A stretch of DNA of 64,000 nucleotides from Acidobacteriota bacterium (GCA_965217775.1 CBDCJH010000002.1:2048001-2112000); one strand, 5' to 3'; positions 27,973-46,777 are shown, numbered from the stretch's first letter. Numbers and translations: made by a program. The notes: generated by a model not told the origin, from the letters alone.

Positions 27973-30900
27973 GACTGGTCCTCCTGGTTCACCGTGCATG
28001 CGGGCCAGTACAGCACACCGGGTAGCAGTGAGGAAGGGGTCCCGTTTTCGTGGACGATTCGGATTCGGCGGAAACGCGGGGTGCGCCCCGCTCTGCGGCC
28101 AACAATCATAGCGGCTGGGTGGAATATTCACAACAATGACACGTAAATGACTCGAATGTTCACTCCATATTCACTCCAGAGGACTATACTTCTATCTTGA
28201 TCGTTCAATAGCTTCTGTTCACTTCGATACTCACTCATTGGAAGAAAGAGCTTGACATTGGCTGAACGGTGGCAATGCTTCTGGAGAACCGAGAGCCGGG
28301 ATTGCGCCTCCTCCCGGCCTGATTCCCACCCTTCTTTCGTCGCGCCCGCCTGGCCTCGGCACTCTGAGACTCCCCGCCCGCAAGACCGCTCCTGCAGCTC
28401 GGACCCTCGGTCCCGAGGACGCCTCACTCACTCTGCATCGACCTTCTCCCACCGCCTGGCGGCGGGCCTGCTGGCCGCGTTGGCCCTAACCGCCCCCGCT
28501 ATTGCCCAGGACGGTGCCGACCCCACGTGTCCAGGCGGGGGTTATAACCCGACGCCGACGGAGGTAGCAGTGACGGCGGTGCCCATCGTGGTCGAGTCCA
28601 CGACGGAGGAGTACTTCGTGCTCTATGTGAAGCACGATGTCGATGGCACGGAAGTGGAGATTCCGGTGGCGGTGACGTTGGGTGAAGCGGACACGACCAC
28701 GCTGGCCGAGAACGTGGAGGCCCTGCCCGCCGAGCGCTACCGGGTGGAGAAGTACCTTGTGGCCGACCCGGCCGACGTGGACGGCGACTGCATCGACGAC
28801 CTCACCGAACTGGCAGACCCGGTGGGCCTGAACCCGGTGAACCCTGCCGCGGCCATCCCACGCAGAGACGGGGTCGTCGCCATTCCCGATCTGGCAACAT
28901 TCGAGGCGATCTCCTTCGGCGGGTACCTCCCCAAGTTCGTTCTGCTCGGCATGAACACCGCCAGCCCGCGTCTCTACTTCATGAACACGAGAACCACTTT
29001 GATTCATGAAGAGTTCATGAATGCCGTCGGCATCGAATTGGGACAGGAGGGGATGATCGAAGGCAGTCTCATGAGTCGCGGGGATCTCGTTGCCCCCGAT
29101 GGCAGTCTGGGAGCCTACTGCTATTGGTGGCGACCTCGCCAGCACCCGTACTCCTTCAACGTCGTGGCGCGCGCCCATACGCTGCTTGCCGCCAGCATGC
29201 CGCTGCTCGAGGACGACTTGGTGTTTTACATATCGAACGACGCTCTTTCGCATGCTCAATCCGACTTGCCATTGTACAGGGAGTCCCGAATCCACCTCGT
29301 GTTCGACGACGAGTTCTTCCCCGAAACCGGTTTTCTGGCGTTGAATCCGGGGGAGGGGTACGGCCGGCTACGGGTCATGGACCCGGACGAGCGGCCTCAC
29401 CCGCGCGACATCGTGATCTACGAGGCACTGCCCAACGAGCTGCCCCGCGTGGCCGGCATCATCTCCACCGTGCCCCAGACGCCGCTGTCTCATGTCAACC
29501 TGCGCGCCGTGCAGAACGGCATCCCCAACGCCTTCATCCGCGATGCCCTCGACAACGACGAAATCGACGCTCTCCTCGGCAGCTACGTCCGCTACGAGGT
29601 GACCGAGGACGGCTGGGAGCTGCGCGCTGCCTCCCCCGAGGAAGTCGACTCGCACTACGAGTCTTCCCGCCCCGCCCAAGCGCAGACCCCGGAGCGGGAC
29701 CTCTCGTTCACCGGGATCACGCCCCTCAGCGAGATCGGTTTCGAGAACTGGAGGGCATTCGGCGTCAAGGCGGCCAACGTGGCGGTGCTGGGGACCCTGC
29801 GTTTCCCGGACGGGACCGTGCCCGACGGTTTTGCCGTGCCGTTCTACTTCTACGACGAGTTCATGAAGGCCAACGGGCTCTATGACGAGATCGAAGAGAT
29901 GCTGGCCGACCCCGCTTTCCAAACCGAATTCGATGAGCAGGAGGACGATCTCAAGGATCTGCGCAAGGCTATCAAGGATGCGGAGACGCCGCAGTGGATC
30001 ACCGACGCGCTGACCGCGATGCATGCGACGTACCCCGAAGGGCAATCGCTGCGCTACCGCTCCAGCACCAACAACGAGGACCTGCCCGGGTTCAACGGCG
30101 CGGGCCTGTACGACTCCAAGACCCAGAAGCCGGACGAGACCGAGAAGGACGGCATCGACAAATCGCTCAAGCAGGTGTATGCCAGCCTCTGGAACTTCCG
30201 GGCCTTCAGCGAACGGGAGTTCCATCGCATCGACCACCTGGCGGCGGCGATGGGAGTGCTGGTGCATCCCAACTACACCGACGAGTTGGCCAACGGCGTG
30301 GCTGTCAGCTTCGATCTTATCTACGGCCGAGAGGGACGCTACTACGTCAACACGCAGGTCGGCGAGGACCTGGTCACCAATCCCGAAGCGCACTCGGTAC
30401 CGGAGGAAATCCTGTTGGACGAGTACGGTTTTCATATCGTTCTTGCCACTTCCAACCAGGTCGAGCCGGGGGAACTTCTCCTGAGCGACGACCAAGTGAA
30501 TCAGTTGCGCCGGCATCTTGAAGTGATCCATGACCACTTCGAGACACTGTACAACCCTGCACCCGAGGAACCGTTCGCCATGGAGATCGAGTTCAAGATC
30601 ACCAGCGCCAACATCCTGGCGATCAAGCAGGCTCGCCCCTGGGTCTTCGACACCGCCTCGTCAACGGATATGGATGAGACCGCACCGAGGTTCTCTTCCG
30701 CGGTGGTGAACGGGGCGACGCTGACGCTGGTCTACAGCGAGCCGCTGGATTCGTCTTCGGTACCTGGGAACGACGCCTTCACCGTGACCGGAGGCAACCG
30801 GACGCGCAGGGTCACCCGAGTCCGGGTGAGCGGGCGCTCGGTGGAGCTGACGCTGGATCCGGCGGTGGAGGACGGGGAAACGAACCTCCGAGTAAGCTAC

Positions 30901-33900
30901 GCGGTCCCAACGGGGACGGGAGCGACTCCGATTCAGGACGCGGCGGGCAACGACGCGGCCGGACTGAGCGCCGAGCCGGTGACGAACGAAACGGCGGACA
31001 CGACTCCACCGGCCGTGAGCCAGTTGGAGATCACGTCGGACGCGGGATCGGATGCGACCTACGCGATCGAGGATGACATCGAGCTGACCGTGACCTTCAG
31101 CGAGGACGTCCTGGTGACGGGGAGGCCGCAGTTGACGCTGAGAGTGGGGGACCAGGACCGAACGGCGGACTACGAAAGCGTCACCGACGCGGAGGTGCTG
31201 TTCCGCTACCGGGTGGACAGGGGTGACATCGACACCAACGGAGTGAGCATCGCGGCGGACAGCCTGTCGCTCAATGGAGGAACCATCGAGGACGGCTCGG
31301 ACAACGAGGCCGACCTGGATCATCGCGCGCTGCGAAACCAATCGCGGCACAAGGTGGAGGGCATCAAACCGGAGTTGGCCGCCACCCGCGGAGCAGTCGT
31401 GAACGGAGCGCTGTTGACGCTGACCTATACCGAGACTCTGGACTCGGCGTCAACGCCGCCGTCCAGCGCCTTCTTCGTGTCGGGGGGCTCTTCGTCGCGA
31501 ACCGTTTCCGGAGTCGCATTGAGCGGGAGTACGGTGAAACTCACTCTCTCCTCCGCAGTGGCGCACTGGGAGACGGGGATCCGGGTGAGCTACACGGTCC
31601 CGGCCGGGATGGCGGCGGCCCCGATTCAAGACCGGGTCGGCAACAACGCAGACGGACTGAGCAGCGAGCCGGTGACGAACGAGACACCGGATCGCATCCC
31701 TCCGACGGTCACCTCGGTGGAGATCACTTCGGATCCTGCGGACGGCCGGGACGTCTATGGCATCGGCGAGGAGATCGAGGTCACGGTGACCTTCAGCGAG
31801 ACCGTCATCGTGTCCGGGACCCCGCGGGTGACGTTGAAGGTGGGGGAGCGGAATCGATCGGCGAACTACGAGAGTGTCGCGGGGGCCCTGGTGGCATTTG
31901 CCTACACGGTGGCCGTCAATGACAGCGACACCGACGGTGTGAGCATCGAGGCCGGCAGCCTGTCCGGCGGGACGATCCGGGATACCGCCAGGAACCATGC
32001 GGTCCGGACCCATATGGGGGTGGCGGCCGACACGGGGCAGAAGGTGGACGGCATCAAACCCAAGCTCGCGACCACCGACGGCGCCGTTGCGAACGCAACC
32101 GTACTGACGCTTGCCTACAGCGAGCCACTGGATGGGTCTTCGGTGCCCGGCAACGACGCCTTCTCGGTGACGGGAGGCAATGAGACGCGAACGGTCACCG
32201 GGGTCCAGGTGAGCGGGAGCGCAGTGGAGCTGACCCTGAGTCCAGCGGTAGAGCACGGGGAGACAGGGATCCGGGTGAGCTACACCATTCCGACGGGGAC
32301 GGGCGCGAACCCGATTCAGGACAGGGCAGGCAACGACGTGGATCGCCTGAACAACCGGTCGGTCACCAATCAAACGGGAGACACGACGGGCCCGACGGTC
32401 GAGATGGTGAGGATCACCTCCAATGCGGGATCGGATGGGACCTACACGGTGGATGATCTCATCGAGGTGACGGTGACGTTCAACGAGACGGTGGTGGTGA
32501 CGCGAACCCCGCGGTTGACGTTGAACGTCGGCGGGCAGAATCGAACGGCGGAGTATCTGAGCCTCACGGGAGCCGCCGTCAAGTTCGAGTACCGGATCGC
32601 CCGGGGCGACAACGACCGGGACGGCGTGAGTATCGACGCAGACAGCTTGTCCCGCGGTGGAGGAACGATCCGCGACGGAGCGCGGAATGACGCCACCTTG
32701 ACCCACGCGGGGGTGGCGGCCGATTCACGGCACCAGGTGGACGGGGTGGCGCCGGTGCTGGCCACGACCGACGGGGCGGTGGTGAACGGAACGAGGCTGA
32801 CGCTGGCCTACAGCGAGCCCCTGAGGTCGTCCTCGCGGCCGGCGGCGAGCGCCTTTACCGTGACGGGAGGGAATGAGGCACGGACGGTCACCCGAGTCCA
32901 GGTGAGCGGAAACGCGGTCTTGCTGACGTTGAACCCGGCCGTCACGGACGGGGAGAGCGGCCTCCGGTTGAGCTACCAGCCGGGGGGGAATCCGATCGAG
33001 GACGTGGTGGGGAACGCCGCGGACGGGCTGAACAACCGAACGGTCACCAACCGCACGGGAGACACGACGGGGCCAACAGTGGAGACGGTGAGGATCACCT
33101 CGAACGCAGGGTCGGATCAGACCTATGCGGCCGGCGAGACCATCGAAGTGACGGTGACCTTCAGCGAGACGGTGGTGGTGACGGGGACGCCGCGGCTGAC
33201 GTTGAACGTGGGGGGCCGGAGCCGGAGGGCGAACTATCGGGACGTCACGGGGGCGGCCGTGAGATTCGAATACCAGGTGGTTTCGGGCGACAGCGCCGCC
33301 TACGGGGTGAGCATCGAGGCGAACCGCCTGTCGGGCGGCACGATCCGCGACGGCGCCCGGAACAACGCCGTGCTGAACCACGCGCCGGTGGAGGCCGAGT
33401 CCCGGCACCGGGTGGATGGAATCAAGCCGGTGCTGGCGACGACCGATGGGGCGGTCGTGAACGGGACGACGCTGACGCTGGCCTACGGCGAGCCGTTGGA
33501 TTCCTCTTCGGTGCCGGCGACGGACGACTTCACCATGACAGGCGGGAGTGAAACCCGGACGGTCACCGGCGTCCGGGTCAGCGGAAACGCGGTGTTCCTG
33601 ACCCTGAGCTCGGCCGTCGCGGATGGAGAGAGCCGCCTCCGGGTGAACTACGAGCCCAGGTCGAATCCGATTCAGGACACCGCGGGGAACGACGCGGACC
33701 GGTTGAGCAACAGGAGCGTCACGAACAAGACGGCAGACACGACGGGACCGGCCGTGTCGACGGTTCGGATCACCTCGAGTGCAGGGTCGGACCGGACCTA
33801 CGGCGTGGACGAGACCATCGAGGTGACGGTGACGTTCAACGAGACGGTGGTGATCACCGGAACGCCGGAACTGACCCTGAACGTGGGCGGCGGGAACCGA

Positions 33901-36900
33901 ACGGCGGAGTATCGAAGCGTCTCGAACCAGGCGGTGAAGTTCGCCTACCGGGTGGTCACTGGGGACAACGACGAGGACGGGGTGAGCCTCGAGGCGAACC
34001 GGCTGTCGCGAGCCGGAGGGACGATCCGGGACGGCGCCGGCAATAACGCCATTCTGGACCATACGGCCGTGGCAGCCAGTTCGAGCCACAAGGTGGACGC
34101 GGTCGCCCCGGTCCTGGCGCTGACCGATCCGGTGGTGGTCAACAGGGCGACGCTGACGCTGACCTACAACGAACCGCTCAACACCTCTTCGCGGCCGGCG
34201 AACAGCGACTTCACCGTGGCCGGGGGCAACGAGACGCGCACCGTGACTCGGGTTCAGGTGACCGGGAGCACGGTTCGGCTGACTGTGAGTCCAGCGGCGG
34301 AGCACGGAGAGACGGGCATCCGCGTGACCTATGAACCCCGATCGAATCCGATCCAGGACCGGGTGGGCAACGATGCCGAGGGGTTCCGGGACCAGTTCGT
34401 AGACAACCGGACCCCGGACACGACGGCGCCGTCGATCGAAGGGATCGAGATCAGTTCCGATCCGGGAACCGACGAGACGTACGCGATTGGAGACATGATC
34501 TTGGTAACGGTGCGCTACGACGAGACGGTGACGGTGGACACGGTGCGGGGGACACCGACGCTGGATCTTCTTGTGGGAAACCGGAGAAAGCGGGCCAGCG
34601 CCGGCACGGGTCCCGCACGGGCAGTCGTGGTGTTTGTCTACACGGTGGAGGAGGGGGACGAGGACGAGGATGGAGTAAGCGTGCCCCGGGGGAGTATCGC
34701 GCTCAACGGAGGGAAGATCCTGGATCTGTCAAACAATGCGGCGGTGCGTAGCTATGAGGCAGTGGAAGCGCAAGCGGACCACAAGGTGGATGGGGCGGAA
34801 CCGGAGCTGGAAGACGTTACGGTGCATGGCTCGCGGGTGGCGCTGAACTACGACGAACCGTTGGACGAGGGCTCGGTGCCGTCGAGATTCGACTTCGCGG
34901 TGACGGTGGACGGGAACGATCGAACGGTCTCCCAGGTCCAAGTCAGGGGCAACAGCGTCATCTTGACGTTGGCCTCAGCCGTGGCAACGGGTGACACGGT
35001 GAGGGTGGACTATACGCCGGGATTCAACCCGATCCAGGACGAGGTGGGGAACGGGACCGAGATGTTGACCAATGAAGAAGCCGACCCACCGCTGGTGACC
35101 ATCGAAGCGAGGGAGGGGTCGGAGACGGTGGCGGAAGGCGACACGGTGGAGTTCACGCTGACGCGGGGGCCGCCCACGGAAGCGTCGTTGACCGTGAACG
35201 TGGAGGTCACCGAACGGGGATCGGTGATCGACACGTCGGGCGGCGATCCGCCGGACGAGGTGGTGTTCCCGGCCCGGCTGGAGACGGCGACACTGTCGGT
35301 GCGGACCGACGATGACGATGTGGCCGAGTCCGCCGGAAGGGTCACCGCCCGGCTGCGGCCGAGAGCCGAGTACCGGCTGGGCCCGACTTCGACCCGGAGC
35401 GCCCGGGTGACGGTCCAGGACAACGAAGTCTCGGCCCCGCCCCCACCACCTCCTCCTCCCCCTCCGCCACCACCGCCGCCACCGCCTCCTCCTCCGCCAC
35501 CGCCACCGCCGCCACCGCCTCCGGCTGCGACTGTGCCCACGGCACCGTTGAACCTGCAGGCAGAAGCCGGGGACGGTGAAGTGACGCTGACCTGGAAGGC
35601 CCCCGAGAGCGACGGCCGCTCTGCCCTCACCGGCTACCAGGTCCGAATCGACCGGGCCGGGGACTGGACCTCCATCGGTTCCACGGACCTGACCCATACC
35701 GTCGCCGGACTGACCAACGGCCGGACCTACGTCTTCGAGGTGCGGGCCGTGAACGAAGTCGGCCAGAGTCCCCCGTCCGACGCAGTCGAGTCCACGCCCA
35801 TGGCCGAGGAGGTGATCCTGGAGTTTGCCCATTTCGGCAACGGGGTTTCGGACAACGACGTGCTCATCACCTCCGACCTGGTGCTGGTGAACGTGGCCGA
35901 AGAAGAGATCCGTCCCGTCATCTATTTCTTCGACGGGGAGGGAAATCTGTTTGAGGCCGAGTCCGTGGTGGATGTCGGAGACGATCTGGAGATCCGGGAG
36001 GACGGAGGGCTGTCGCCCCGGACGGAGATCGCGTCGCTGGGCGAGCTGACGATCTCGACCCACGGCCGGGGCGAAGTCGTGACGGGATCGGTCCGGGTGG
36101 TTTCGGACGGACCCATCGGCGGGGTCGTGCGCTTCGACATCCCCGGAATCGGCGTCGCCGGCGTGGGCGCCAGCGAACCCACGGCGGACGCCCTGTTCCC
36201 GGCCCGGCGGCAGGCCGGCGGGATCCGCACCGCGGCGGCCATCCACAACCTGGGGATGGAGGCCGTCGACGTCCAGTGCCGGTTGCTGAAGGACGGCAGT
36301 GTGCTGGAAGAGGGGGAGATCCCGTTGAGCGCCAACGGCCAGGCCTCCAAGTTCATCGAGGAACTGTTCACCGCGACCGACACCACGGACTTCGTGGGGT
36401 CGGTCCGTTGTACGGTCCCGCACGGTGAACTGTTCACGGGAGTGGCGGTGGAACTGGATGCGGGCAACCGGATCTTCACCACCCTGCCAGTGGTGCCGAT
36501 CGGCCCGGAGGCTGCCGAAGATCAGGAAACGACCCTGACCTTCGCGCATTTCGCGAATGGAACTTCCGGCGACGGGACCTTGATCACCTCGGACCTGGTG
36601 CTGGTGAACGTGGCGGCGTCAACGGTTCGTCCCGCCGTCTACTTTTACGATCAGCGTGGGGAACTGCTGGAGCCGGAATCGATGGTGGAGGTCGAAGACC
36701 ATCTTCTCGTCCGAGAGGACGGAGGCTTGACCCTGCAAACGGCCATGGCCCGTCTGGGCGAGTTGACGATCTCGACCCACGGCCGGGGAGAGGTGGTGAC
36801 CGGATCGGTGCGGGTGGTGGCGAACGGACCCGTCGGCGGCGTCCTGCGCTTCGACATCCCGGGCGTCGGCGTGGCCGGCGTGGGCGCGAGTCAACCCACG

Positions 36901-37252
36901 TCGGACGCGCTGTTTCCGGCCCGGAGGCAAACGAGCGGGATCCGCACGGCGGCGTCCATCCGGAACCTGGAAGCGGAGCGGGCGACGGTTCGCTGCGGGT
37001 TGATGAGCGGGGGCGAGGAGTTGGAAGAAGTGGACATCCCTCTCAACGGCCATGGACAGTATGCTCGCTTCATCGAAGAGGTGTTCACCAGGACGGATAC
37101 GGCCGGCTTCGTGGGATCGGTACGATGCACGGCTCTTGGGGAAGGGACGTTCACCGGAGTGGCGGTGGAACTGGACACCGGCAACCGGATCTTCACCACC
37201 CTGCCGGTCGTGCCCATCCAAACCACAGTCCCTCAGCAGTAATTCCAACAGG
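27919..37252. repeat. Copy 1 of a ~9.3 kb direct duplication
   Basis: Colinear with 37475-46787 from CGGTGCGGCCGTCACC to TAATTCCAACAGG. Confidence 0.95.
28252..37242 (+). CDS. Giant exported protein: variable domain, phospho-His motif, PPDK_N ATP-grasp, SwmB/Ig repeats, Calx-beta-like domain, poly-Pro, FN3 and duplicated C-terminal domain
   Basis: Signal-like AAGLLAALALTAPAIA; VAGIIS...PLSHVNLRA..NGIP; GVKAAN, VPDGF, RSSTNNED...GAGLY, YASLW, EIEF and QARP motifs; 7 SwmB-like and 6 Ig-like alternating repeats. Start codon (TTG) uncertain. Confidence 0.88.
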   Translation: MTLAERWQCFWRTESRDCASSRPDSHPSFVAPAWPRHSETPRPQDRSCSSDPRSRGRLTHSASTFSHRLAAGLLAALALTAPAIAQDGADPTCPGGGYNPTPTEVAVTAVPIVVESTTEEYFVLYVKHDVDGTEVEIPVAVTLGEADTTTLAENVEALPAERYRVEKYLVADPADVDGDCIDDLTELADPVGLNPVNPAAAIPRRDGVVAIPDLATFEAISFGGYLPKFVLLGMNTASPRLYFMNTRTTLIHEEFMNAVGIELGQEGMIEGSLMSRGDLVAPDGSLGAYCYWWRPRQHPYSFNVVARAHTLLAASMPLLEDDLVFYISNDALSHAQSDLPLYRESRIHLVFDDEFFPETGFLALNPGEGYGRLRVMDPDERPHPRDIVIYEALPNELPRVAGIISTVPQTPLSHVNLRAVQNGIPNAFIRDALDNDEIDALLGSYVRYEVTEDGWELRAASPEEVDSHYESSRPAQAQTPERDLSFTGITPLSEIGFENWRAFGVKAANVAVLGTLRFPDGTVPDGFAVPFYFYDEFMKANGLYDEIEEMLADPAFQTEFDEQEDDLKDLRKAIKDAETPQWITDALTAMHATYPEGQSLRYRSSTNNEDLPGFNGAGLYDSKTQKPDETEKDGIDKSLKQVYASLWNFRAFSEREFHRIDHLAAAMGVLVHPNYTDELANGVAVSFDLIYGREGRYYVNTQVGEDLVTNPEAHSVPEEILLDEYGFHIVLATSNQVEPGELLLSDDQVNQLRRHLEVIHDHFETLYNPAPEEPFAMEIEFKITSANILAIKQARPWVFDTASSTDMDETAPRFSSAVVNGATLTLVYSEPLDSSSVPGNDAFTVTGGNRTRRVTRVRVSGRSVELTLDPAVEDGETNLRVSYAVPTGTGATPIQDAAGNDAAGLSAEPVTNETADTTPPAVSQLEITSDAGSDATYAIEDDIELTVTFSEDVLVTGRPQLTLRVGDQDRTADYESVTDAEVLFRYRVDRGDIDTNGVSIAADSLSLNGGTIEDGSDNEADLDHRALRNQSRHKVEGIKPELAATRGAVVNGALLTLTYTETLDSASTPPSSAFFVSGGSSSRTVSGVALSGSTVKLTLSSAVAHWETGIRVSYTVPAGMAAAPIQDRVGNNADGLSSEPVTNETPDRIPPTVTSVEITSDPADGRDVYGIGEEIEVTVTFSETVIVSGTPRVTLKVGERNRSANYESVAGALVAFAYTVAVNDSDTDGVSIEAGSLSGGTIRDTARNHAVRTHMGVAADTGQKVDGIKPKLATTDGAVANATVLTLAYSEPLDGSSVPGNDAFSVTGGNETRTVTGVQVSGSAVELTLSPAVEHGETGIRVSYTIPTGTGANPIQDRAGNDVDRLNNRSVTNQTGDTTGPTVEMVRITSNAGSDGTYTVDDLIEVTVTFNETVVVTRTPRLTLNVGGQNRTAEYLSLTGAAVKFEYRIARGDNDRDGVSIDADSLSRGGGTIRDGARNDATLTHAGVAADSRHQVDGVAPVLATTDGAVVNGTRLTLAYSEPLRSSSRPAASAFTVTGGNEARTVTRVQVSGNAVLLTLNPAVTDGESGLRLSYQPGGNPIEDVVGNAADGLNNRTVTNRTGDTTGPTVETVRITSNAGSDQTYAAGETIEVTVTFSETVVVTGTPRLTLNVGGRSRRANYRDVTGAAVRFEYQVVSGDSAAYGVSIEANRLSGGTIRDGARNNAVLNHAPVEAESRHRVDGIKPVLATTDGAVVNGTTLTLAYGEPLDSSSVPATDDFTMTGGSETRTVTGVRVSGNAVFLTLSSAVADGESRLRVNYEPRSNPIQDTAGNDADRLSNRSVTNKTADTTGPAVSTVRITSSAGSDRTYGVDETIEVTVTFNETVVITGTPELTLNVGGGNRTAEYRSVSNQAVKFAYRVVTGDNDEDGVSLEANRLSRAGGTIRDGAGNNAILDHTAVAASSSHKVDAVAPVLALTDPVVVNRATLTLTYNEPLNTSSRPANSDFTVAGGNETRTVTRVQVTGSTVRLTVSPAAEHGETGIRVTYEPRSNPIQDRVGNDAEGFRDQFVDNRTPDTTAPSIEGIEISSDPGTDETYAIGDMILVTVRYDETVTVDTVRGTPTLDLLVGNRRKRASAGTGPARAVVVFVYTVEEGDEDEDGVSVPRGSIALNGGKILDLSNNAAVRSYEAVEAQADHKVDGAEPELEDVTVHGSRVALNYDEPLDEGSVPSRFDFAVTVDGNDRTVSQVQVRGNSVILTLASAVATGDTVRVDYTPGFNPIQDEVGNGTEMLTNEEADPPLVTIEAREGSETVAEGDTVEFTLTRGPPTEASLTVNVEVTERGSVIDTSGGDPPDEVVFPARLETATLSVRTDDDDVAESAGRVTARLRPRAEYRLGPTSTRSARVTVQDNEVSAPPPPPPPPPPPPPPPPPPPPPPPPPPPPPAATVPTAPLNLQAEAGDGEVTLTWKAPESDGRSALTGYQVRIDRAGDWTSIGSTDLTHTVAGLTNGRTYVFEVRAVNEVGQSPPSDAVESTPMAEEVILEFAHFGNGVSDNDVLITSDLVLVNVAEEEIRPVIYFFDGEGNLFEAESVVDVGDDLEIREDGGLSPRTEIASLGELTISTHGRGEVVTGSVRVVSDGPIGGVVRFDIPGIGVAGVGASEPTADALFPARRQAGGIRTAAAIHNLGMEAVDVQCRLLKDGSVLEEGEIPLSANGQASKFIEELFTATDTTDFVGSVRCTVPHGELFTGVAVELDAGNRIFTTLPVVPIGPEAAEDQETTLTFAHFANGTSGDGTLITSDLVLVNVAASTVRPAVYFYDQRGELLEPESMVEVEDHLLVREDGGLTLQTAMARLGELTISTHGRGEVVTGSVRVVANGPVGGVLRFDIPGVGVAGVGASQPTSDALFPARRQTSGIRTAASIRNLEAERATVRCGLMSGGEELEEVDIPLNGHGQYARFIEEVFTRTDTAGFVGSVRCTALGEGTFTGVAVELDTGNRIFTTLPVVPIQTTVPQQ

Positions 37253-37474: not shown

Positions 37475-37528
37475 CGGTGCGGCCGTCACCACCGCAGCCA
37501 GGACCAGGAATCCGAACGATCTGCTCAT
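37475..37528 (-). pseudogene. Duplicated 5' stub (signal peptide only) of the FG-GAP gene
   Basis: MSRSFGFLVLAAVVTAAP matches the start of 25171-27972; homology ends at the duplication edge. Confidence 0.8.
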
Positions 37529-37807
37529 GACTGGCCCTCCTGGTTCACCGTGCATGCGGGCCAGTACAGCCCACCGGGGAGCAGCGAGGAAGGGGTCCCG
37601 TTTTCGTGGACGACTCAGATTCGGCGGAAACGCGGGGTGGGCCCCACTCTGCGGCCAACAATCATAGCGGATGGGTGGAATATTCACACAATTGACATCT
37701 GAATGACTCTAACTTTCACTCCATATTCACTCCATAGGACTATACTTATCTCTTGATCGTTCCATAGCTTCTGTTCGCTTCAATACTCACTCATTGGAAG
37801 AAAGAGC

Positions 37808-40800
37808 TTGACATTGGCTGAACGGTGGCAACGCTTCTGGAGAACCGAGAGCCGGGATCGCGCCTCCTCCCGGCCTGATTCCCACCCTTCTTTCGTCGCG
37901 CCCGCCTGGTCGCGGCAGTCTGAGACTCCCCGCCCGCAAAACCGCTCCTGCAGCTCGGACCCTCGGTCCCGAGGACGCCTCACTCACTCTGCATTGACCT
38001 TCTCCCACCGCCTGGCGGCGGGCCTGCTGGCCGCGTTGGCCCTAACCGCCCCCGCTATTGCCCAGGACGGTGCCGACCCCACGTGTCCAGGCGGGGGTTA
38101 TAACCCGACGCCGACGGAGGTAGCAGTGACGGCGGTGCCCATCGTGGTCGAGTCCACGACGGAGGAGTACTTCGTGCTCTATGTGAAGCACGATGTCGAT
38201 GGCACGGAAGTGGAGATTCCGGTGGCGGTGACGTTGGGTGAAGCGGACACGACCACGCTGGCCGAGAACGTGGAGGCCCTGCCCGCCGAGCGCTACCGGG
38301 TGGAGAAGTACCTTGTGGCCGACCCGGCCGACGTGGACGGCGACTGCATCGACGACCTCACCGAACTGGCAGACCCGGTGGGCCTGAACCCGGTGAACCC
38401 TGCCGCGGCCATCCCACGCACCGACGGGGTCGTCGCCATTCCCGATCTGGCAACATTCGAGGCGATCTCCGTCAGCGGGGACCACCTCAAGTTCGTTCTG
38501 CTCGGCATGAACACCGACAGCCCGCGTCTCTACTTCATGAACACGAGAACCACTATGCTTCATGAAGAGTTCCTGAATGCCGTCGGCATCGAGTCGGGAC
38601 AGGAGGGGATAATCGACGGCAGTCTCACGCATCGCGGGAATCTCGTTGCCCCTGATGGCAGTCCGGGAGTCTACTGCTTTTGGTGGTATCATCGCGAGCA
38701 GCCGTACTCCTTCAGCGTCGTGGCGCGCGCCCATACGCTGCTTGCCGCCAGCATGCCGCTGCTCGAGGACGACTTGGCGTTTTTCATATCGAACGCCGCT
38801 CTTCCGCATTCTCAACCCTTCTTGCCATTGTTCAGGGAGTCCCGAATCCACCTCGTGTTCGACGACGAGTTCTACGGCGAAGCCAGTGTTCTGTTGTTGA
38901 ATCCGGGGGAGGGGTACGGCCGGCTGCGGGTCATGGACCCGGACGAGCGGCCTCACCCGCGCGACATCGTGATCTACGAGGCGCTGCCCAACGAGCTGCC
39001 CCGCGTGGCCGGCATCATCTCCACCGTGCCCCAGACGCCGCTGTCTCATGTCAACCTGCGCGCCGTGCAGAACGGCATCCCCAACGCCTTCATCCGCGAT
39101 GCCCTCGACAGAGACCGTATCGTCGCTCTCCTCGGCAGCTACGTCCGCTACGAGGTGACCGAGAGCCGCTGGTACCTGCGCGCTGCCTCCCCCGAGGAAG
39201 TCGACGCGCACTACGAGTCTTCCCGCCCCGCCCAGGCGCAGACCCCGGAGCGGGACCTCTCGGTCACCGGGATCACGCCCCTCAGCGAGATCGGTTTCGA
39301 GGACTGGAGGGCATTCGGCGTCAAGGCGGCCAACGTGGCGGTGCTGGGGACCCTGGGTTTCCCGGACGGGACCGTGCCCGACGGTTTTGCCGTGCCGTTC
39401 TACTTCTACGACGAGTTCATGAAGGCCAACGGGCTCTATGACGAGATCGAAGAGATGCTGGCCGACCCCGCTTTCCAAACCGACTTCGATGAGCAGGAGG
39501 ACGATCTCAAGGATCTGCGCAAGGATATCAAGGATGCGGAGACGCCGCAGTGGATCACCGACGCGCTGACCGCGATGCATGCGACGTACCCCGAAGGGCA
39601 ATCGCTGCGCTACCGCTCCAGCACCAACAACGAGGACCTGCCCGGGTTCAACGGCGCGGGCCTGTACGACTCCAAGACCCAGAAGCCGGACGAGACCGAG
39701 AAGGACGGCATCGACAAATCGCTCAAGCAGGTGTATGCCAGCCTCTGGAACTTCCGGGCCTTCAGCGAACGGGAGTTCCATCGCATCGACCACCTGACGG
39801 CGGCGATGGGGGTGCTGGTACATCCCAACTACACCGACGAGTTGGCCAACGGCGTGGCTGTCAGCTTCGACCTCCTCTACGGCCGATTGGGGAGCTACTA
39901 CGTCAACACGCAGGTCGGCGAGGACCTGGTCACCAATCCCGAAGCGCACTCGGTACCGGAGGAAATCCTGTTGGACGAGTTCGGTGGTTACTCCGTTCTT
40001 GGCATCTCCAACCAGGTGCCGCCGGGGCAACTGCTGATGAGCGAAGACCAACTGGATCAGTTGCGCCGGCATCTTGAAGTGATCCATGACCACTTCGAGA
40101 CACTGTACAACCCTGCACCCGAGGAACCGTTCGCCATGGAGATCGAGTTCAAGATCACCAGCGCCAACATCCTGGCGATCAAGCAGGCTCGCCCCTGGGT
40201 CTTCTACACCGATATGGATGAGACCGCGCCGAAGTTCTCTTCCGCGCTGGTGAACGGGGCGACGCTGACGCTGGTCTACAGCGAGCCGCTGGATTCGTCT
40301 TCGGTACCAGGGAACGACGCCTTCACCGTGACCGGAGGCAACCGGACGCGCAGGGTCACCCGAGTCCGGGTGAGCGGGCGCTCGGTGGAGCTGACGCTGG
40401 ATCCGGCGGTGGAGGACGGGGAAACGAACCTCCGAGTAAGCTACGCGGTCCCAACGGGGACGGGAGCGACTCCGATTCAGGACGCGGCGGGCAACGACGC
40501 GGCCGGACTGAGCGCCGAGCCGGTGACGAACGAAACGGCGGACACGACTCCACCGGCCGTGAGCCAGTTGGAGATCACGTCGGACGCGGGATCCGATGCG
40601 ACCTACGCGATCGGGGATGACATCGAGCTGACCGTGACCTTCAGCGAAGACGTCCTGGTGACGGGGAGGCCGCAGTTGACGCTGAGGGTGGGGGACCAGG
40701 ACCGAACGGCGGACTACGAAAGCGTCACCGACGCGGAGGTGCTGTTCCGCTACCGGGTGGTCACCGGTGACATCGACACCAACGGCGTGAGCATTGCGGC

Positions 40801-43800
40801 CGACAGCCTGTCGCTGAATGGAGGAACCATCGAGGACGGCTCGAACAACGAGGCCGACCTGGATCATCGCGCGCTGCGAAACCAATCGCGGCACAAGGTG
40901 GAAGGCATCAAACCGGAGTTGGCCGCCACCCGCGGAGCAGTCGTGAACGGAGCGCTGTTGACGCTGACCTATACCGAGACTCTGGACTCGGCGTCAACGC
41001 CGCCGTCCAGCGCCTTCTTCGTGTCGGGGGGCTCTTCGTCGCGAACCGTTTCCGGAGTCGCATTGAGCGGGAGTACGGTGAAACTCACTCTCTCCTCCGC
41101 AGTGGCGCACTGGGAGACGGGGATCCGGGTGAGCTACACGGTCCCGGCCGGGATGGCGGCGGCCCCGATTCAAGACCGGGTCGGCAACAACGCAGACGGA
41201 CTGAGCAGCGAGCCGGTGACGAACGAGACACCGGATCGCATCCCTCCGACGGTCACCTCGGTGGAGATCACTTCGGATCCTCCGGACGGCCGGGACGTCT
41301 ACGGCAGGGGCGAGGAGATCGAGGTCACGGTGACCTTCAGCGAAACCGTCATCGTGTCCGGGACCCCGCGGGTGACGTTGAAGGTGGGGGAGCGGAATCG
41401 ATCGGCGAACTACGAGAGTGTCGCAGGGGCCGTGGTGGCATTTGCCTACACGGTGGCCGTCAATGACAGCGACACCGACGGTGTGAGCATCGAGGCCGGC
41501 AGCCTGTCCGGCGGGACGATCCGGGACACTTCGAGGAACAACGCCGTCCGGACCCACTCTTCGGTGGCGGCCGACACCGGGCAGAAGGTGGACGGAATCA
41601 AACCCGTACTGGCGAGCACCGACGGGGCGGTCGCCAACGGAACGATGTTGACGCTGGCCTACAGTGAGCCTCTGGACTCCTCCTCAGTCCCGGGGAACGA
41701 CGCCTTCTCCGTAACCGGGGGCAGTGAGACGCGGACCGTCACGGGAGTCCGGGTGAGCGGAAGCGCGGTGGAACTGACCCTGACTCCGGCAGTGGAGCAC
41801 GGGGAGACGAGCCTCCGGGTGAGCTACACGATCCCGACCGGAACGGGAGCGACTCCGATCCAGGACACGGCGGGGAACGACGCGGACCGGTTGAGCAACC
41901 GGTCGGTCACCAATCAAACGGGAGACACGACGGGCCCGACGGTCGAGACGGTGAGGATCACCTCCAATGCGGGGTCGGACCGGACCTACGCGGTGGAAGA
42001 TCCCGTCGAGGCGACGGTGACGTTCAACGAGACGGTGGTGGTGACGGGAACCCCGCGGTTGACGTTGAACGTCGGCGGGCAGAATCGAACGGCGGAGTAC
42101 CTGAGCGTCACGGGAGCCGCCGTCAAGTTCGAGTACCGGGTCGCCCGGGGCGACAACGACCGGGACGGCGTGAGTATCGACGCCGACAGCTTGTCCCGCG
42201 GTGGAGGAACGATCCGCGACGGAGCGCGGAATGACGCCACCTTGACCCACGCGGGAGTGGCGGCCGATTCACGGCACCAGGTGGACGGGGTGGCGCCGGT
42301 GCTGGCCACGACGGACGGGGCGGTGGCGAACGGAACGATGCTGACGCTGGCCTACAGTGAGCCCCTGAGGTCGTCCTCGCGGCCGGCGGCGAGCGCCTTC
42401 ACCGTGGGCGGGGGCAGCGAGACTCGGACGGTCACCCGGGTGCAGGTGAGCGGAAGCGCGGTCTTGCTGAGGTTGAACCCGGCCGTGCAGGACACAGAGA
42501 GCGGCCTCCGGTTGAGCTACCAGCCGGGGGGAAACCCCATCGAGGACGTCGTGGGCAACGCCGCGGACGAGCTGAACAACCGACCGGTCACCAACCGCAC
42601 GGGGGACACGACGGGGCCGACAGTGGAGACAGTGCGGATCACCTCGAACGCAGGGTCGGATCAGACCTATGCGGCCGGCGAGACCATCGAAGTGACGGTG
42701 ACCTTCAGCGAGACGGTGGTGGTGACGGGGACGCCGCGGCTGACGTTGAACGTGGGGGGCCGGAGCCGGAGGGCGAACTATCGGGACGTCACGGGGGCCG
42801 CCGTGAGGTTCGAATACCAGGTGGTCTCGGGCGACAGCGCCGCCTACGGGGTAAGCATCGCGGCGAACCGCCTGTCCGGCGGCACGATCCGCGACGGCGC
42901 CCGGAACAACGCCGTGCTGAACCACGCGCCGGTCGCGGCCGAGTCCCGGCACCAGGTGGATGGGATCAAGCCGGTGCTGGCGACGACCGATGGGGCGGTC
43001 GTGAACGGGACGACGCTGACGCTGGCCTACGGCGAGCCTTTGGATACCTCTTCGGTGGCGGCGACGGACGACTTCACCGTGACGGGAGGGAGCGAGACAC
43101 GGACGGTCACGGGAGTTCGGGTGAACGGGAGCGCGGTGTTCCTGACGCTGAGTCCGGCCGTCACGGACGGAGAGAGCCGCCTCCGGGTGAACTACGAGCC
43201 GGGATCGAATCCGATCCAGGACACCGCAGGCAACGACGCGGACCGGTTGAGCAACAGGAGCGTCACGAACCGGACAGCAGACACGATGGGACCGGCCGTG
43301 TCAACGGTTCGGATCACCTCGAGTGCAGGATCGGACCGGACCTACGGCGTGGACGAGACCATCGAGGTGACGGTGACGTTCGAGGAGACGGTGGTGATCA
43401 CCGGAACGCCGGAACTGACCCTGAACGTGGGCGGCGGGAACCGAACGGCGGAGTATCGAAGCATCTCGAACCGGGCCGTGAAATACGCCTACCGGGTGGT
43501 CACGGGCGACAACGACGAGGACGGGGTGAGCCTCGAGGCGAACAGCCTGTCGCCAGCCGGAGGGACGATCCGGGACGGCGCCGGCAATAACGCCATGCTG
43601 GACCATACGGCCGTGGAAGCCAGTTCGAGCCACAAGGTGGACGCGGTCGCCCCGGTGCTGGCACTGACCGATCCGGTGGTGGTCAACGGGGCGACGCTGA
43701 CGCTGACCTACAACGAACCGCTCAACACCTCTTCGCGGCCGGCGGACAGCGACTTCACCGTGGAGGGAGGCAACGAGACGCGCACCGTGACTCGGGTTCA

Positions 43801-46777
43801 GGTGACCGGGAGCACGGTTCGGCTGACGGTGAGTCCAGCGGCGGAGCACGGAGAGACGGGCATCCGCGTGACCTATGAACCCCGATCGAATCCGATCCAG
43901 GACCGGGTGGGCAACGATGCCGAGGGGTTCCGGGACCAGTTCGTAGACAACCGGACCCCGGACACGACGGCGCCGTCGATCGAAGGGATCGAGATCAGTT
44001 CCGATCCGGGAACCGACGAGACGTACGCGATTGGAGACATGATCTTGGTAACGGTGCGCTACGACGAGACGGTGACGGTGGACACGGTGCGGGGGACGCC
44101 GACGCTGGATCTTCTGGTGGGAAACCGGAGAAAGCGGGCCAGCGCCGGCACGGGTCCCGCACGGGCAGTCGTGGTGTTTGTCTACACGGTGGAGGAGGGG
44201 GACGAGGACGAGGATGGAATAAGCGTGCCCCGGGGGAGTATCGCGCTCAACGGAGGGAAGATCCTGGATCTGTCAAACAATGCGGCGGTGCGTAGCTATG
44301 AGGCAGTGGAAGCGCAATCGGACCACAAGGTGGATGGGGCGGAACCGGAGTTGGAGAGCGTGACGGTGCATGACTCGCGAGTGGCGCTGAACTACGACGA
44401 ACCGTTGGATGAGGGTTCGGTGCCGTTGAGTTCCGACTTCGCAGTGACGGTGGCCGGGGATGATCGAACGGTGGTCCAGGTTCGGGTGAGCGGAAACAGC
44501 GTCATCTTGAGGCTGACCTCAGAGGTGACGGCGGGCGAACCCGTGATGGTGAGCTATACGCCAGGGTTCAACCCGATCCAGGACGAGGTGGGCAATGGGG
44601 TCGAGACGTTGACCAATGAACCAGCCGAGCCGCCCCTGGTGACGATCCAGGCCAAGGAGGGATCCGAGACGGTGACGGAAGGGGACACCGTGGTGTTCAC
44701 CCTGACGCGGGGGCCGCCGACGGAGGCCGCGCTGACGGTGAGTCTGGAGGTCACGGAGACGAGATCGATGATCGAAACCTCGGGCGGGTACGAACCGCCG
44801 GAGGAGGTGGAGTTCCGGTCCGGACAGGAGACGGCGACGTTGGAGGTGTTGACCGACGATGACGACGTTGCCGAATCCACCAGCCGGGTCACCGCCCGGC
44901 TGCAGCCGGGAGACGAGTACCGGCTGGGCCCGACTTCGACCCAGAGCGCCCGGGTGACGGTCCAGGACAACGAAGTCTCGGCCCCGCCTCCGCCTCCTCC
45001 TCCACCGCCACCGCCCCCTCCGCCGCCGCCGCCGCCGCCACCACCGCCTCCTCCGCCGGCTGCGACTGTGCCCACGGCACCGTTGAACCTGCAGGCAGAA
45101 GCCGGGGACGGTGAAGTGACGCTCTCCTGGGAGGCCCCCGAGAGCGACGGCCGCTCCTCCCTCACCGGCTACCAGGTCCGGATCGACCGGGCCGGGGACT
45201 GGATCTCCATCGGTTCCACGGACCGGACCCATACGGTCACCGGACTGACCAACGGCCGGACCTACGTCTTCGAGGTGCGGGCCGTGAACTCGGTCGGTCA
45301 GGGTCCTGCCTCCAACGCGGTCGAGGCCACGCCCATGGCGGAGGAGGTGATCCTGGAGTTCGCCCATTTCGGAAACGGCTATTCGGACAACGACGTGCTC
45401 ATCACCTCCGACCTGGTGCTGGTGAACGTGGCCGAGTCAGAGATTCGTCCCGTCATCTATTTCTTCGACGGGGAGGGAGATCTGTTTGAAGCCGAGTCCG
45501 TGGTGGACCTCGGGGACGATCTGGAGATCCGGGAGGACGGAGGGCTGTCGCCCCGGACGGAGATCGCGTCGCTGGGTGAGCTGACGATCTCGACCCACGG
45601 CCGGGGCAAAGTCGTGACGGGATCGGTCCGGGTGATGTCGGACGGACCCATCGGCGGCGTGGTCCGCTTCGACATCCCCGGGATCGGCGTCGCCGGCGTC
45701 GGCGCCAGCGAACCCACGGCGGACGCCCTGTTCCCGGCCCGGCGGCAGGCCGGCGGGATCCGCACTGCGGCGGCCATCCACAACTTGGGGATGGAGGCTG
45801 TCGACGTCCAGTGCCGGTTGATGAAGGATGGCAGAGTGCTGGAAGAGGGGGAGATCGAACTCAGCGCCAACGGCCAGGATGCCCAGTTCCTCGAGGAGCT
45901 GTTCACCGCGACCGACACCACGGACTTCGTGGGGTCGGTGCGCTGTACGGTCCCGGCGGGTGAGTCGTTCACGGGAGTGGCGGTGGAACTGGATGCGGGC
46001 AACCGGATCTTCACCACGCTGCCGGTGGTGCCGATCGGCCCGGAGGCTGCCGAAGACCAGGAAACGACCCTGACCTTCGCGCATTTCGCGAATGGAACTT
46101 CCGGCGACGGGACCTTGATCACCTCGGACCTGGTGCTGGTGAACGTGGCGGCGTCAACGGTTCGTCCCGCCGTCTACTTTTACGATCAGCGTGGGGAACT
46201 GCTGGAGCCGGAATCGATGGTGGAGGTCGAAGACCATCTTCTCGTCCGAGAGGACGGAGGCTTGACCCTGCGAATGGCCCTGGCCCATCTGGGCGAGTTG
46301 ACGATCTCGACCCACGGCCGCGGAGACGTGGTGACCGGATCGGTGCGGGTGGTGGCGAACGGACCCGTCGGCGGCGTCCTGCGCTTCGACATCCCGGGCG
46401 TCGGCGTGGCCGGCGTGGGCGCGAGTCAACCCACGTCGGACGCGCTGTTTCCGGCCCGGAGGCAAACGAGCGGGATCCGCACGGCGGCGTCCATCCGGAA
46501 CCTGGAAGCGGAGCGGGCGACGGTTCGCTGCGGGTTGATGAGCGGGGGCGAGGAGTTGGAAGAAGTGGACATCCCTCTCAACGGCCATGGACAGTATGCT
46601 CGCTTCATCGAAGAGGTGTTCACCAGGACGGATACGGTCGGCTTCGTGGGATCGGTACGATGCACGGCTCTTGGGGAAGGGACGTTCACCGGAGTGGCGG
46701 TGGAACTGGACACCGGCAACCGGATCTTCACCACCCTACCGGTCGTGCCCATCCAAACCACAGTCTCTCAGCAGTAA
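37808..46777 (+). CDS. Second giant exported dikinase-like/SwmB repeat protein (paralog of 28252-37242)
   Basis: Same domain order, intact frame, 2989 vs 2996 aa. Confidence 0.88.
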   Translation: MTLAERWQRFWRTESRDRASSRPDSHPSFVAPAWSRQSETPRPQNRSCSSDPRSRGRLTHSALTFSHRLAAGLLAALALTAPAIAQDGADPTCPGGGYNPTPTEVAVTAVPIVVESTTEEYFVLYVKHDVDGTEVEIPVAVTLGEADTTTLAENVEALPAERYRVEKYLVADPADVDGDCIDDLTELADPVGLNPVNPAAAIPRTDGVVAIPDLATFEAISVSGDHLKFVLLGMNTDSPRLYFMNTRTTMLHEEFLNAVGIESGQEGIIDGSLTHRGNLVAPDGSPGVYCFWWYHREQPYSFSVVARAHTLLAASMPLLEDDLAFFISNAALPHSQPFLPLFRESRIHLVFDDEFYGEASVLLLNPGEGYGRLRVMDPDERPHPRDIVIYEALPNELPRVAGIISTVPQTPLSHVNLRAVQNGIPNAFIRDALDRDRIVALLGSYVRYEVTESRWYLRAASPEEVDAHYESSRPAQAQTPERDLSVTGITPLSEIGFEDWRAFGVKAANVAVLGTLGFPDGTVPDGFAVPFYFYDEFMKANGLYDEIEEMLADPAFQTDFDEQEDDLKDLRKDIKDAETPQWITDALTAMHATYPEGQSLRYRSSTNNEDLPGFNGAGLYDSKTQKPDETEKDGIDKSLKQVYASLWNFRAFSEREFHRIDHLTAAMGVLVHPNYTDELANGVAVSFDLLYGRLGSYYVNTQVGEDLVTNPEAHSVPEEILLDEFGGYSVLGISNQVPPGQLLMSEDQLDQLRRHLEVIHDHFETLYNPAPEEPFAMEIEFKITSANILAIKQARPWVFYTDMDETAPKFSSALVNGATLTLVYSEPLDSSSVPGNDAFTVTGGNRTRRVTRVRVSGRSVELTLDPAVEDGETNLRVSYAVPTGTGATPIQDAAGNDAAGLSAEPVTNETADTTPPAVSQLEITSDAGSDATYAIGDDIELTVTFSEDVLVTGRPQLTLRVGDQDRTADYESVTDAEVLFRYRVVTGDIDTNGVSIAADSLSLNGGTIEDGSNNEADLDHRALRNQSRHKVEGIKPELAATRGAVVNGALLTLTYTETLDSASTPPSSAFFVSGGSSSRTVSGVALSGSTVKLTLSSAVAHWETGIRVSYTVPAGMAAAPIQDRVGNNADGLSSEPVTNETPDRIPPTVTSVEITSDPPDGRDVYGRGEEIEVTVTFSETVIVSGTPRVTLKVGERNRSANYESVAGAVVAFAYTVAVNDSDTDGVSIEAGSLSGGTIRDTSRNNAVRTHSSVAADTGQKVDGIKPVLASTDGAVANGTMLTLAYSEPLDSSSVPGNDAFSVTGGSETRTVTGVRVSGSAVELTLTPAVEHGETSLRVSYTIPTGTGATPIQDTAGNDADRLSNRSVTNQTGDTTGPTVETVRITSNAGSDRTYAVEDPVEATVTFNETVVVTGTPRLTLNVGGQNRTAEYLSVTGAAVKFEYRVARGDNDRDGVSIDADSLSRGGGTIRDGARNDATLTHAGVAADSRHQVDGVAPVLATTDGAVANGTMLTLAYSEPLRSSSRPAASAFTVGGGSETRTVTRVQVSGSAVLLRLNPAVQDTESGLRLSYQPGGNPIEDVVGNAADELNNRPVTNRTGDTTGPTVETVRITSNAGSDQTYAAGETIEVTVTFSETVVVTGTPRLTLNVGGRSRRANYRDVTGAAVRFEYQVVSGDSAAYGVSIAANRLSGGTIRDGARNNAVLNHAPVAAESRHQVDGIKPVLATTDGAVVNGTTLTLAYGEPLDTSSVAATDDFTVTGGSETRTVTGVRVNGSAVFLTLSPAVTDGESRLRVNYEPGSNPIQDTAGNDADRLSNRSVTNRTADTMGPAVSTVRITSSAGSDRTYGVDETIEVTVTFEETVVITGTPELTLNVGGGNRTAEYRSISNRAVKYAYRVVTGDNDEDGVSLEANSLSPAGGTIRDGAGNNAMLDHTAVEASSSHKVDAVAPVLALTDPVVVNGATLTLTYNEPLNTSSRPADSDFTVEGGNETRTVTRVQVTGSTVRLTVSPAAEHGETGIRVTYEPRSNPIQDRVGNDAEGFRDQFVDNRTPDTTAPSIEGIEISSDPGTDETYAIGDMILVTVRYDETVTVDTVRGTPTLDLLVGNRRKRASAGTGPARAVVVFVYTVEEGDEDEDGISVPRGSIALNGGKILDLSNNAAVRSYEAVEAQSDHKVDGAEPELESVTVHDSRVALNYDEPLDEGSVPLSSDFAVTVAGDDRTVVQVRVSGNSVILRLTSEVTAGEPVMVSYTPGFNPIQDEVGNGVETLTNEPAEPPLVTIQAKEGSETVTEGDTVVFTLTRGPPTEAALTVSLEVTETRSMIETSGGYEPPEEVEFRSGQETATLEVLTDDDDVAESTSRVTARLQPGDEYRLGPTSTQSARVTVQDNEVSAPPPPPPPPPPPPPPPPPPPPPPPPPAATVPTAPLNLQAEAGDGEVTLSWEAPESDGRSSLTGYQVRIDRAGDWISIGSTDRTHTVTGLTNGRTYVFEVRAVNSVGQGPASNAVEATPMAEEVILEFAHFGNGYSDNDVLITSDLVLVNVAESEIRPVIYFFDGEGDLFEAESVVDLGDDLEIREDGGLSPRTEIASLGELTISTHGRGKVVTGSVRVMSDGPIGGVVRFDIPGIGVAGVGASEPTADALFPARRQAGGIRTAAAIHNLGMEAVDVQCRLMKDGRVLEEGEIELSANGQDAQFLEELFTATDTTDFVGSVRCTVPAGESFTGVAVELDAGNRIFTTLPVVPIGPEAAEDQETTLTFAHFANGTSGDGTLITSDLVLVNVAASTVRPAVYFYDQRGELLEPESMVEVEDHLLVREDGGLTLRMALAHLGELTISTHGRGDVVTGSVRVVANGPVGGVLRFDIPGVGVAGVGASQPTSDALFPARRQTSGIRTAASIRNLEAERATVRCGLMSGGEELEEVDIPLNGHGQYARFIEEVFTRTDTVGFVGSVRCTALGEGTFTGVAVELDTGNRIFTTLPVVPIQTTVSQQ

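Follow-up and report, generated by a model that had tools for sequence, protein, structure and literature searches.

What would an enzyme that spends ATP do on the outside of a bacterial cell? This question is raised by two neighboring open reading frames (ORFs) in a stretch of 64,000 nucleotides from an Acidobacteriota bacterium (GCA_965217775.1, CBDCJH010000002.1:2048001-2112000), which we call the window and number from its first letter. ORF A (28252..37242, plus strand, 2996 amino acids [aa]) and its tandem paralog ORF B (37808..46777, plus strand, 2989 aa) encode a leader, a dikinase module, a stalk, and a doubled C-terminal domain, as read from ORF calls, Pfam, and motifs. To our knowledge, dikinases are cytoplasmic or plastid enzymes, as they need ATP. 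An earlier note on this DNA had described two ORFs of about 3000 aa, which are indeed present, and had proposed an extracellular dikinase that phosphorylates a glycan, a protein, or a small molecule or else consumes extracellular ATP. We find A and B to belong to a known enzyme superfamily as a presumably exported variant, in which the acceptor domain has no name. By analogy with known enzymes, each protein may use a general-purpose surface stalk to display an active histidine-relay dikinase from a family that is likewise unnamed, a reading to which we assign a probability of about 45%. Two parts of the earlier proposal gained support, namely the dikinase-type chemistry (judged from a swivel fold, an ATP-grasp, and conserved residues, with activity presumed) and the outside location, whereas a glycan acceptor lost ground to a small molecule.

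Predicted fold and catalytic residues of the head

The 716-aa head (aa 86-801) was modeled with AlphaFold2 on an alignment of 85 sequences (predicted local distance difference test [pLDDT] 91, predicted template modeling score [pTM] 0.85), and the model was compared by fold with 48,161 solved chains. Four parts can be told apart in it: an Ig-like beta-sandwich, an alpha/beta domain, a domain at aa 360-463, and an ATP-grasp. The last of these (aa 485-801; A 29704..30654, B 39260-40210, plus strand) is of the PPDK_N type by Pfam and by fold, with Pfam matches at aa 504-799 (E 1.4e-24 and 3.7e-22; 87.4 bits against a cut-off of 27) and structural matches to rifampin phosphotransferase (RPH; 5hv1, Z 28.9, root-mean-square deviation [rmsd] 2.5 over 292 residues) and to phosphoenolpyruvate (PEP) synthase (2ols, Z 28.0). 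The domain at aa 360-463 (A 29329..29640, B 38885-39196, plus strand; model residues 275-378) is a predicted phospho-histidine swivel domain that matches pyruvate kinase 2e28 (Z 10.2, rmsd 3.1 over 98), Enzyme I 2wqd (Z 9.6), and the phosphoryl carrier domain of PPDK 2fm4 (Z 8.6). Its putative phosphoryl carrier His414, placed by motif in both proteins and by the model in A (A 29491..29493, B 39047..39049, plus strand), is the first residue of a predicted helix, presumably as at known phospho-histidine sites, and the residues that follow run gaplessly with PEP synthase in an H-x4-A-x3-G-x-P register.

Conservation was counted over 346 aligned stretches from 341 proteins (267 search matches and 74 loci, partly redundant). 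The putative carrier H414 is kept in 338 of 341 cases and the residues of the ATP-grasp are retained at similar rates (K506 in 341/342, R603 in 339/340, S622 in 336/337, E780 in 325/327, Q793 in 324/324, and R795 in 322/324). The swivel motif including His414 is found throughout an exported branch (118/118) and a cytoplasmic branch (121/121) of the family. Two proteins, P0211 and P0245, have a substituted His414, have lost some grasp residues, and are decayed or pseudo-enzyme copies. K506, R603, and S622 correspond to Lys22, Arg117, and Thr136 of RPH (R603 and S622 by gapless alignment, K506 by motif position), which have been implicated in ATP handling (PMC4844700).

Dikinase-type catalysis through His414 is very likely. 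Most of what the earlier note had said of the head stands: its motifs and the His414 codons (CAT at 29491 and 39047) lie where it had put them, its ATP-grasp motif set belongs to a PPDK_N domain with catalytic residues about 99% conserved, K506, R603, and S622 are not degenerate across homologs, a swivel domain around His414 is predicted by fold, and neither A nor B has a Pfam match to the PEP/pyruvate barrel that it had reported missing.

Export, stalk, and anchor

Both proteins are, from their sequences, highly probable to be located outside the cell, as the earlier note had assumed, because several unrelated anchors occur in the family and because the same stalk bears proteases in this genome. 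A type IX secretion system (T9SS) sorting domain is present in 93 of 120 relatives of P0253 among the matches listed, SLH and CWB2 anchors were found among 34 module-bearing proteins scanned, and a hydropathy screen detected an N-terminal hydrophobic stretch in 194/266 module-bearing proteins versus 1/121 cytoplasmic relatives from Streptomyces. The genome itself holds 13 ORFs with the same stalk and 29 with the same C-terminal domain. In the 11 of these stalk proteins other than A and B, the N-terminal parts hold M12 metalloproteases (3), subtilases (4), or glucose/sorbosone dehydrogenase plus arylsulfotransferase (1), while three gave no clear enzyme match in the parts scanned. Since the same stalk bears other enzyme heads, it is a general display chassis and not a part of the dikinase. 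The sibling with glucose/sorbosone dehydrogenase and arylsulfotransferase (L085, G000:C2:2607286-2619900) carries another group-transfer enzyme.

At the N-terminus, a signal-peptide-like hydrophobic stretch ending in A-I-A (aa 69-85; A 28456..28506, B 38012-38062, plus strand) reaches a hydropathy maximum of 2.24 over 12 aa, and no transmembrane-like stretch follows further along the chain. The segment described by the earlier note is thus present, but on a long leader, beginning about 65 residues past the first start; the only common starts before it in A are TTG at 28252 and 28258, while B has an extra TTG at 37994 (TCG in A) that would give an ordinary signal peptide of 23 residues. The leader has no NCBIfam match in A or B. 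Next comes the Ig-like beta-sandwich of the head (aa about 95-190; 28534..28821, plus strand; drawn from the strands of the model and identical in A and B) with a calcium-type loop, DxDxDxxxDxxE, whose acidic residues are 97-99% conserved. This motif occurs in 110/118 T9SS-type relatives versus 0/121 cytoplasmic ones from Streptomyces, and the loop may bind calcium.

The stalk of A (30673..35061, plus strand) has the (Swm-Ig)x6-Swm build that had been proposed, with seven SWM_repeat stretches per protein by Pfam in A and B and six interleaved Ig-type repeats by motif count. It is followed by a Calx-beta-like domain, a poly-Pro run, and FN3 (35107..35793, plus strand). Pfam confirms one fn3 per protein but gives no match for Calx-beta in A or B, so that this label expresses motif likeness only. 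A doubled C-terminal domain of about 230 aa (A 35812..37221, B 45347-46756, plus strand), shared with the other ORFs mentioned above, is the probable anchor; it has no sequence match in Pfam, NCBIfam, or the PDB, and its profile found nothing below E 0.7 in the PDB.

A mobile module of a large family

The head belongs to a large family and is a mobile module, attached to unrelated export anchors and mixed across phyla. Of 8000 candidates scored, 1950 are homologs of the head. Clusters number 4224 at E<=0.001, the weaker of which include ordinary PEP synthases, and 1291 at E<=1e-30. Among species genomes, at least 531 of 557 pattern matches were confirmed. Members are labeled "PEP/pyruvate-binding domain-containing protein" in databases, and no description of the family was found in a literature search whose coverage lacks most subscription papers. 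The best 74 loci, 60-78% identical, come from Binatia, Latescibacterota, Dehalococcoidia, Poriferisodalis, Aldehydirespirator, three Acidobacteriota lineages, and more, as well as from the archaeon Cenarchaeum, lineages that we take to be typical sponge symbionts. The picture of a head on a stalk holds for A and B, but in relatives the module also lies mid-chain or at the C-terminus of unrelated large proteins; 4/74 copies are broken. One protein, P0121, carries two full modules in a single chain of 3227 aa.

A tree of 53 rows, supported by SH-aLRT only and built without 23 Dehalococcoidia near-duplicates or the 4 broken copies, mixes phyla: Chloroflexota show 14 label changes versus 15.3 after shuffling, and four cross-phylum sister pairs have support of 98-100. 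Paralogy could explain part of this mixing. The module is present in 0/8 genomes of the same genus and, in its full form, in 1/30 relatives searched, and this near-absence from relatives points to a recent gain. Near the module, further giant surface proteins are encoded at 48 of the 74 loci and a two-component pair at 12 Dehalococcoidia loci. None of 4 candidate viral contigs was confirmed. In one study, two sponge metatranscriptome libraries hold contigs that match A over 202 and 325 bases with one difference, the second stretch lying inside the variable domain described below, although such contigs cannot show transcription; a B-type base at 29017 was seen in one RNA library and one other run.

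The alpha/beta domain and its relatives

If the head is a dikinase, its acceptor would be bound by the alpha/beta domain at aa 200-360 (A 28849..29331, B 38405..38887, plus strand), a role suggested by its position and its homologs. The model gives this domain about 160 aa with 5 strands and 5 helices; K228, N245, H252, G271, and R346 are conserved, and all of these except G271 were counted at 92-99% in 333 module members. Whole-head fold searches were filled by the swivel domain and the grasp, leaving the Ig-like and alpha/beta domains without a fold match of their own, and the alpha/beta domain has no NCBIfam match and no usable atlas match. A likeness to multicystatin (summed E 1.2e-4 in a PDB profile search, single stretches at E about 30) was rejected as a beta-hairpin likeness that disappeared with a wider profile.

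Profile searches with the alpha/beta domain gave weak matches in 11/300 genomes of the phylum that led to compact proteins of 620-680 aa (L111-L121) with the same three domains, signal-peptide-like N-termini, and no stalk. By eye, a glycosyltransferase-like ORF adjoins three of them (L114, L116, and L119) and probably a fourth (L121). A search of plasmids then added Streptomyces relatives of 668-670 aa, free of a signal peptide, between a BacD-like ATP-grasp ligase and a transporter of the major facilitator superfamily (MFS). These operons (L123:8169-12849, L124:8166-12993) comprise the ligase, a dikinase with the His domain before the grasp, the MFS gene, and a divergent PAS-HTH regulator, and from their gene content they are a candidate pathway for a phosphorylated dipeptide. 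Identity is 78-100% for all 120 homologs of the Streptomyces relative among the matches listed, and those with a name come from Streptomyces.

The alpha/beta profile connects the module to the compact secreted relatives (E 2.3e-9) and these to the cytoplasmic ones (E 5e-19 over 140 columns). Against one Streptomyces sequence the module profile reached E 0.43 and against two E 0.038, becoming significant only with 21 cytoplasmic sequences. Across the branches, H252 is invariant (43/43) and F217, N245, and G271 reach 90%. Among 49 loci of the cytoplasmic branch (two plasmid regions and 47 metagenome loci), a related MFS gene is present in 36 and a BacD-like ligase in 5; 7 of the 13 loci without an MFS gene end at or near the end of the dikinase gene. 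An H+-pyrophosphatase gene lies near the cytoplasmic dikinase in 6/49 loci (L133, L135, L142, L143, L147, L154). The ligase and transporter pairing is confined to cytoplasmic relatives, being neither found beside the window genes nor a shared neighbor in the 74 module loci.

Because the alpha/beta domain is homologous to that of MFS- and ligase-linked cytoplasmic relatives, a small-molecule acceptor is favored over a glycan, and we tentatively suppose that the acceptor is a small molecule or peptide. The competing idea of a kinase that phosphorylates the surface of a host or matrix glycan or protein, working like glucan water dikinase (GWD), draws on a GWD-like domain order (PMC13553574), on a long stalk that would suit an immobile target, on sibling heads that are mostly proteases, and on an aromatic-rich variable surface of the alpha/beta domain (aa 289-302). 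We consider it improbable, since Pfam finds no carbohydrate-binding module (CBM) in A, B, or 34 relatives, the domain is alpha/beta and thus unlike the 20-helix central domain of GWD, and its cytoplasmic homologs pair with a small-molecule transporter.

Divergence between the two copies

The two ORFs are a tandem duplication with 93.8% DNA identity and therefore count as one observation. By blastn boundaries, the first copy of the unit (27919..37252) comprises the upstream control region, the first codons of a divergent FG-GAP gene, and ORF A, and the second spans 37475..46787 (no strand assigned to either). No matching metatranscriptome contig spans the A-B junction, leaving the tandem layout without independent confirmation. 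At the protein level, A and B are 100% identical over aa 86-200 and 93% in the His and grasp domains, versus 77.5% over aa 201-360. The latter region contains 41 non-synonymous versus 3 synonymous differences (proportions per site pN 0.111 and pS 0.029), an excess with one-sided Fisher p=0.003, or about 0.013 when corrected for four regions; the stalk has a dN/dS of 0.22. The changes fall on positions that are variable in the family (mean conservation 0.39 versus 0.60, p=5e-6) and spare K228, N245, H252, and R346. This pattern is consistent with selection for a new target after duplication. The pair is a natural experiment: about 36 positions separate the two heads in the acceptor domain, whereas the catalytic core is nearly unchanged.

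Fast non-synonymous change is, as a matter of general knowledge, typical of host-contact surfaces, and the head might accordingly be an adhesin or nucleotide-sensing module of no or marginal catalytic activity, its residues kept for ATP binding and its variable domain evolving against a host receptor. The position of the module among adhesin repeats, its double occurrence in P0121, and the broken heads at 4/74 loci would fit this idea. We hold it to be very improbable, as His414 and the whole swivel motif are 99% conserved together with the grasp residues in exported and cytoplasmic branches alike.

Two other origins of the differences were rejected. A diversity-generating retroelement would need a template, and a sensitive blastn search found only the two copies; 25/44 differences between the copies involve base A in the alpha/beta domain versus 16/35 in the grasp. 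Mosaic import of a divergent allele would have raised silent differences too, of which only 3 were seen. The genome has 13 reverse-transcriptase matches, of which 11 are near-identical dispersed copies of about 520 aa or truncated forms; these 11 are presumably group II introns.

Proposed mechanism and points against it

How a stalk-borne dikinase might work can be sketched by analogy with RPH, PEP synthase, and GWD. The ATP-grasp would bind Mg-ATP, His414 would attack the beta-phosphate, the gamma-phosphate would be released as inorganic phosphate (Pi), and AMP would leave; the swivel domain would then turn to the N-terminal alpha/beta domain, where K228, N245, H252, and R346 would hold the acceptor that receives the phosphate. 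This acceptor would most likely be a small diffusible molecule or a short peptide or amine outside the cell, probably in the sponge host, and would by phosphorylation be inactivated, trapped, or turned into a signal, with ATP supplied from outside by host or lysed cells. The module would have been gained recently by transfer, joined to a resident stalk, and duplicated, with the copies selected towards different acceptors. For A and B, export, catalysis, the role of the alpha/beta domain, the acceptor class, and the ATP source are steps that we infer.

Several points weigh against this proposal. The main problem for an extracellular dikinase is its source of ATP, and we found nothing relevant in the literature on ATP supply outside cells in this niche. 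PF00391 has no match at E<=0.1 in A or B and a sequence profile of the His domain does not detect canonical PEP synthase; in the absence of a sequence-level match, the swivel assignment rests on the predicted fold, whose matches are given as ranges with His414 not superposed residue by residue on a known phospho-histidine. From a single sequence, the N-terminal half folds with a pLDDT of only 33. The start codon, and hence the signal peptide, of A and B is uncertain from the sequence, and no partner gene is conserved across phyla in the 74 loci. The selection signal comes from one pair and from a region chosen after seeing the identities; since sixteen other disjoint pairs with >80% identity show a pN/pS of 0.30 in the alpha/beta region, it is specific to the A/B duplicate. 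Finally, the direct link between the module and the cytoplasmic branch (E 1.6e-6, probability 90%) covers only 50 columns, and A and B have not retained the acidic E-x-x-E/D and KPxN motifs seen in the compact and cytoplasmic branches; the acceptor of A and B may thus have changed class or been lost relative to the other branches.

The loss of these acidic motifs would also suit an ecto-nucleotidase that converts extracellular ATP to AMP and 2 Pi via phospho-histidine with water as the acceptor, damping host purine danger signals or harvesting phosphate, and that uses the alpha/beta domain for binding or targeting. RPH variants keep ATP pyrophosphatase activity (PMC4844700) and GWD can transfer to water (PMC13553574), conservation is much higher in the grasp and His motifs than in the alpha/beta domain (about 0.8-0.96 versus 0.43-0.7), and a spread over unrelated symbionts fits a shared host-facing need. 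This alternative nevertheless appears unlikely to us, given that the high conservation of K228, N245, H252, and R346 suggests a working second site, that a plain apyrase would on general grounds be cheaper, and that ATP hydrolysis needs no diversifying change in the alpha/beta domain.

A family of thousands that keeps this machinery on export anchors implies usable extracellular ATP in these habitats and an unknown phosphorylated product. In its widest form, the proposal would be that bacteria living with animals, together with an archaeon, exchange among themselves a surface enzyme that draws on extracellular ATP from the host to phosphorylate small molecules or peptides of hosts or competitors outside the cell, possibly forming N-P bonds, with an undescribed acceptor fold shared with an orphan Streptomyces dipeptide pathway and retargeted by duplication and positive selection; this we regard as somewhat unlikely. 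If it held, dikinases that act outside cells would form a first class of their own, and sponges and their microbes would have a new means of chemical exchange. Owing to the homology to compact forms of 620-680 aa, including those of cultured Streptomyces, the chemistry is testable without culturing the symbiont.

Surroundings of the two genes

Two large FG-GAP repeat proteins are encoded at 25171-28131 and 54570-57428 of the window, of which the former is read away from ORF A and had its first codons copied by the duplication. A dispersed repeat of about 190 bases (37293-37482) lies between the duplication units and has 11 more copies in the genome with 90-95% identity. A phosphate uptake cluster (533-6322; porin O/P, binding protein, permease, ABC ATPase, and PhoU) includes a pst/phoU operon 22 kb upstream of the ORFs, for which no link to the dikinase genes was seen. 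At 20080-24709, a HerA/DUF87-type ATPase, an unassigned 587-aa ORF, and a DNA methylase-like ORF in a row are possibly a defense or mobile module.

Comparison with known systems

The closest structural match of the ATP-grasp is RPH of Listeria monocytogenes (PDB 5hv1; PMC4844700), with which A and B share the key ATP residues and a three-part design of grasp, swivel, and acceptor domains as well as, in the favored reading, a small-molecule acceptor. The order of parts differs, being grasp-acceptor-His in RPH and acceptor-His-grasp in A and B, which score 45.7 bits against a cut-off of 999 for the NCBIfam model of RPH (NF041857). We know of no RPH displayed on a cell surface.

In this order, the head resembles GWD1 of potato, as the earlier note had recognized, and the GWD grasp likewise aligns better with RPH than with PPDK according to PMC13553574, the source of our comparison, which was by description only. 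The likeness ends at the order: in GWD1, two CBM45 modules precede a 20-helix central domain (same paper), while A and B have an Ig-like domain and a 160-aa alpha/beta domain. CBMs were looked for by Pfam, at the level of sequence only. Going by the model, the head of A and B does not belong to the glucan water dikinases. In a second exported-looking family with the His domain before the grasp (L097, L098, L100 in G017-G019; about 1000 aa), the N-terminal region differs, being about 500 aa long and helical in appearance by sequence, and the family may be nearer to GWD in build; this region of L100 had no sequence match in the PDB, including none to GWD.

With PEP synthase and PPDK (2ols, 1dik, 2fm4), A and B share the PPDK_N grasp, the swivel fold, and the register after the histidine, and they differ in lacking the barrel and the G-G-x-T-x-H motif and in their reversed order, scoring 72.8 bits against a cut-off of 598 and 9.2 against 843 for the NCBIfam equivalogs. 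TalE, a PEPS/PPDK homolog of about 79 kDa from the phosphoramidon cluster, phosphorylates the amine of Leu-Trp, and its gene is grouped with those for an ATP-grasp dipeptide ligase and an MFS transporter (PMC6482885), an arrangement also seen for the 670-aa Streptomyces relatives. The tie between these relatives and talB/talD/talE is an analogy drawn from gene layout and size, and the window genes differ from TalE in having no ligase or transporter partner and in their predicted export. As for the stalk, A and B resemble giant surface proteins with SwmB repeats (PF13753) in having seven SWM repeats each, and they differ in that these repeats are interleaved with Ig domains and bear interchangeable enzyme heads, as in the 13 such ORFs of this genome.

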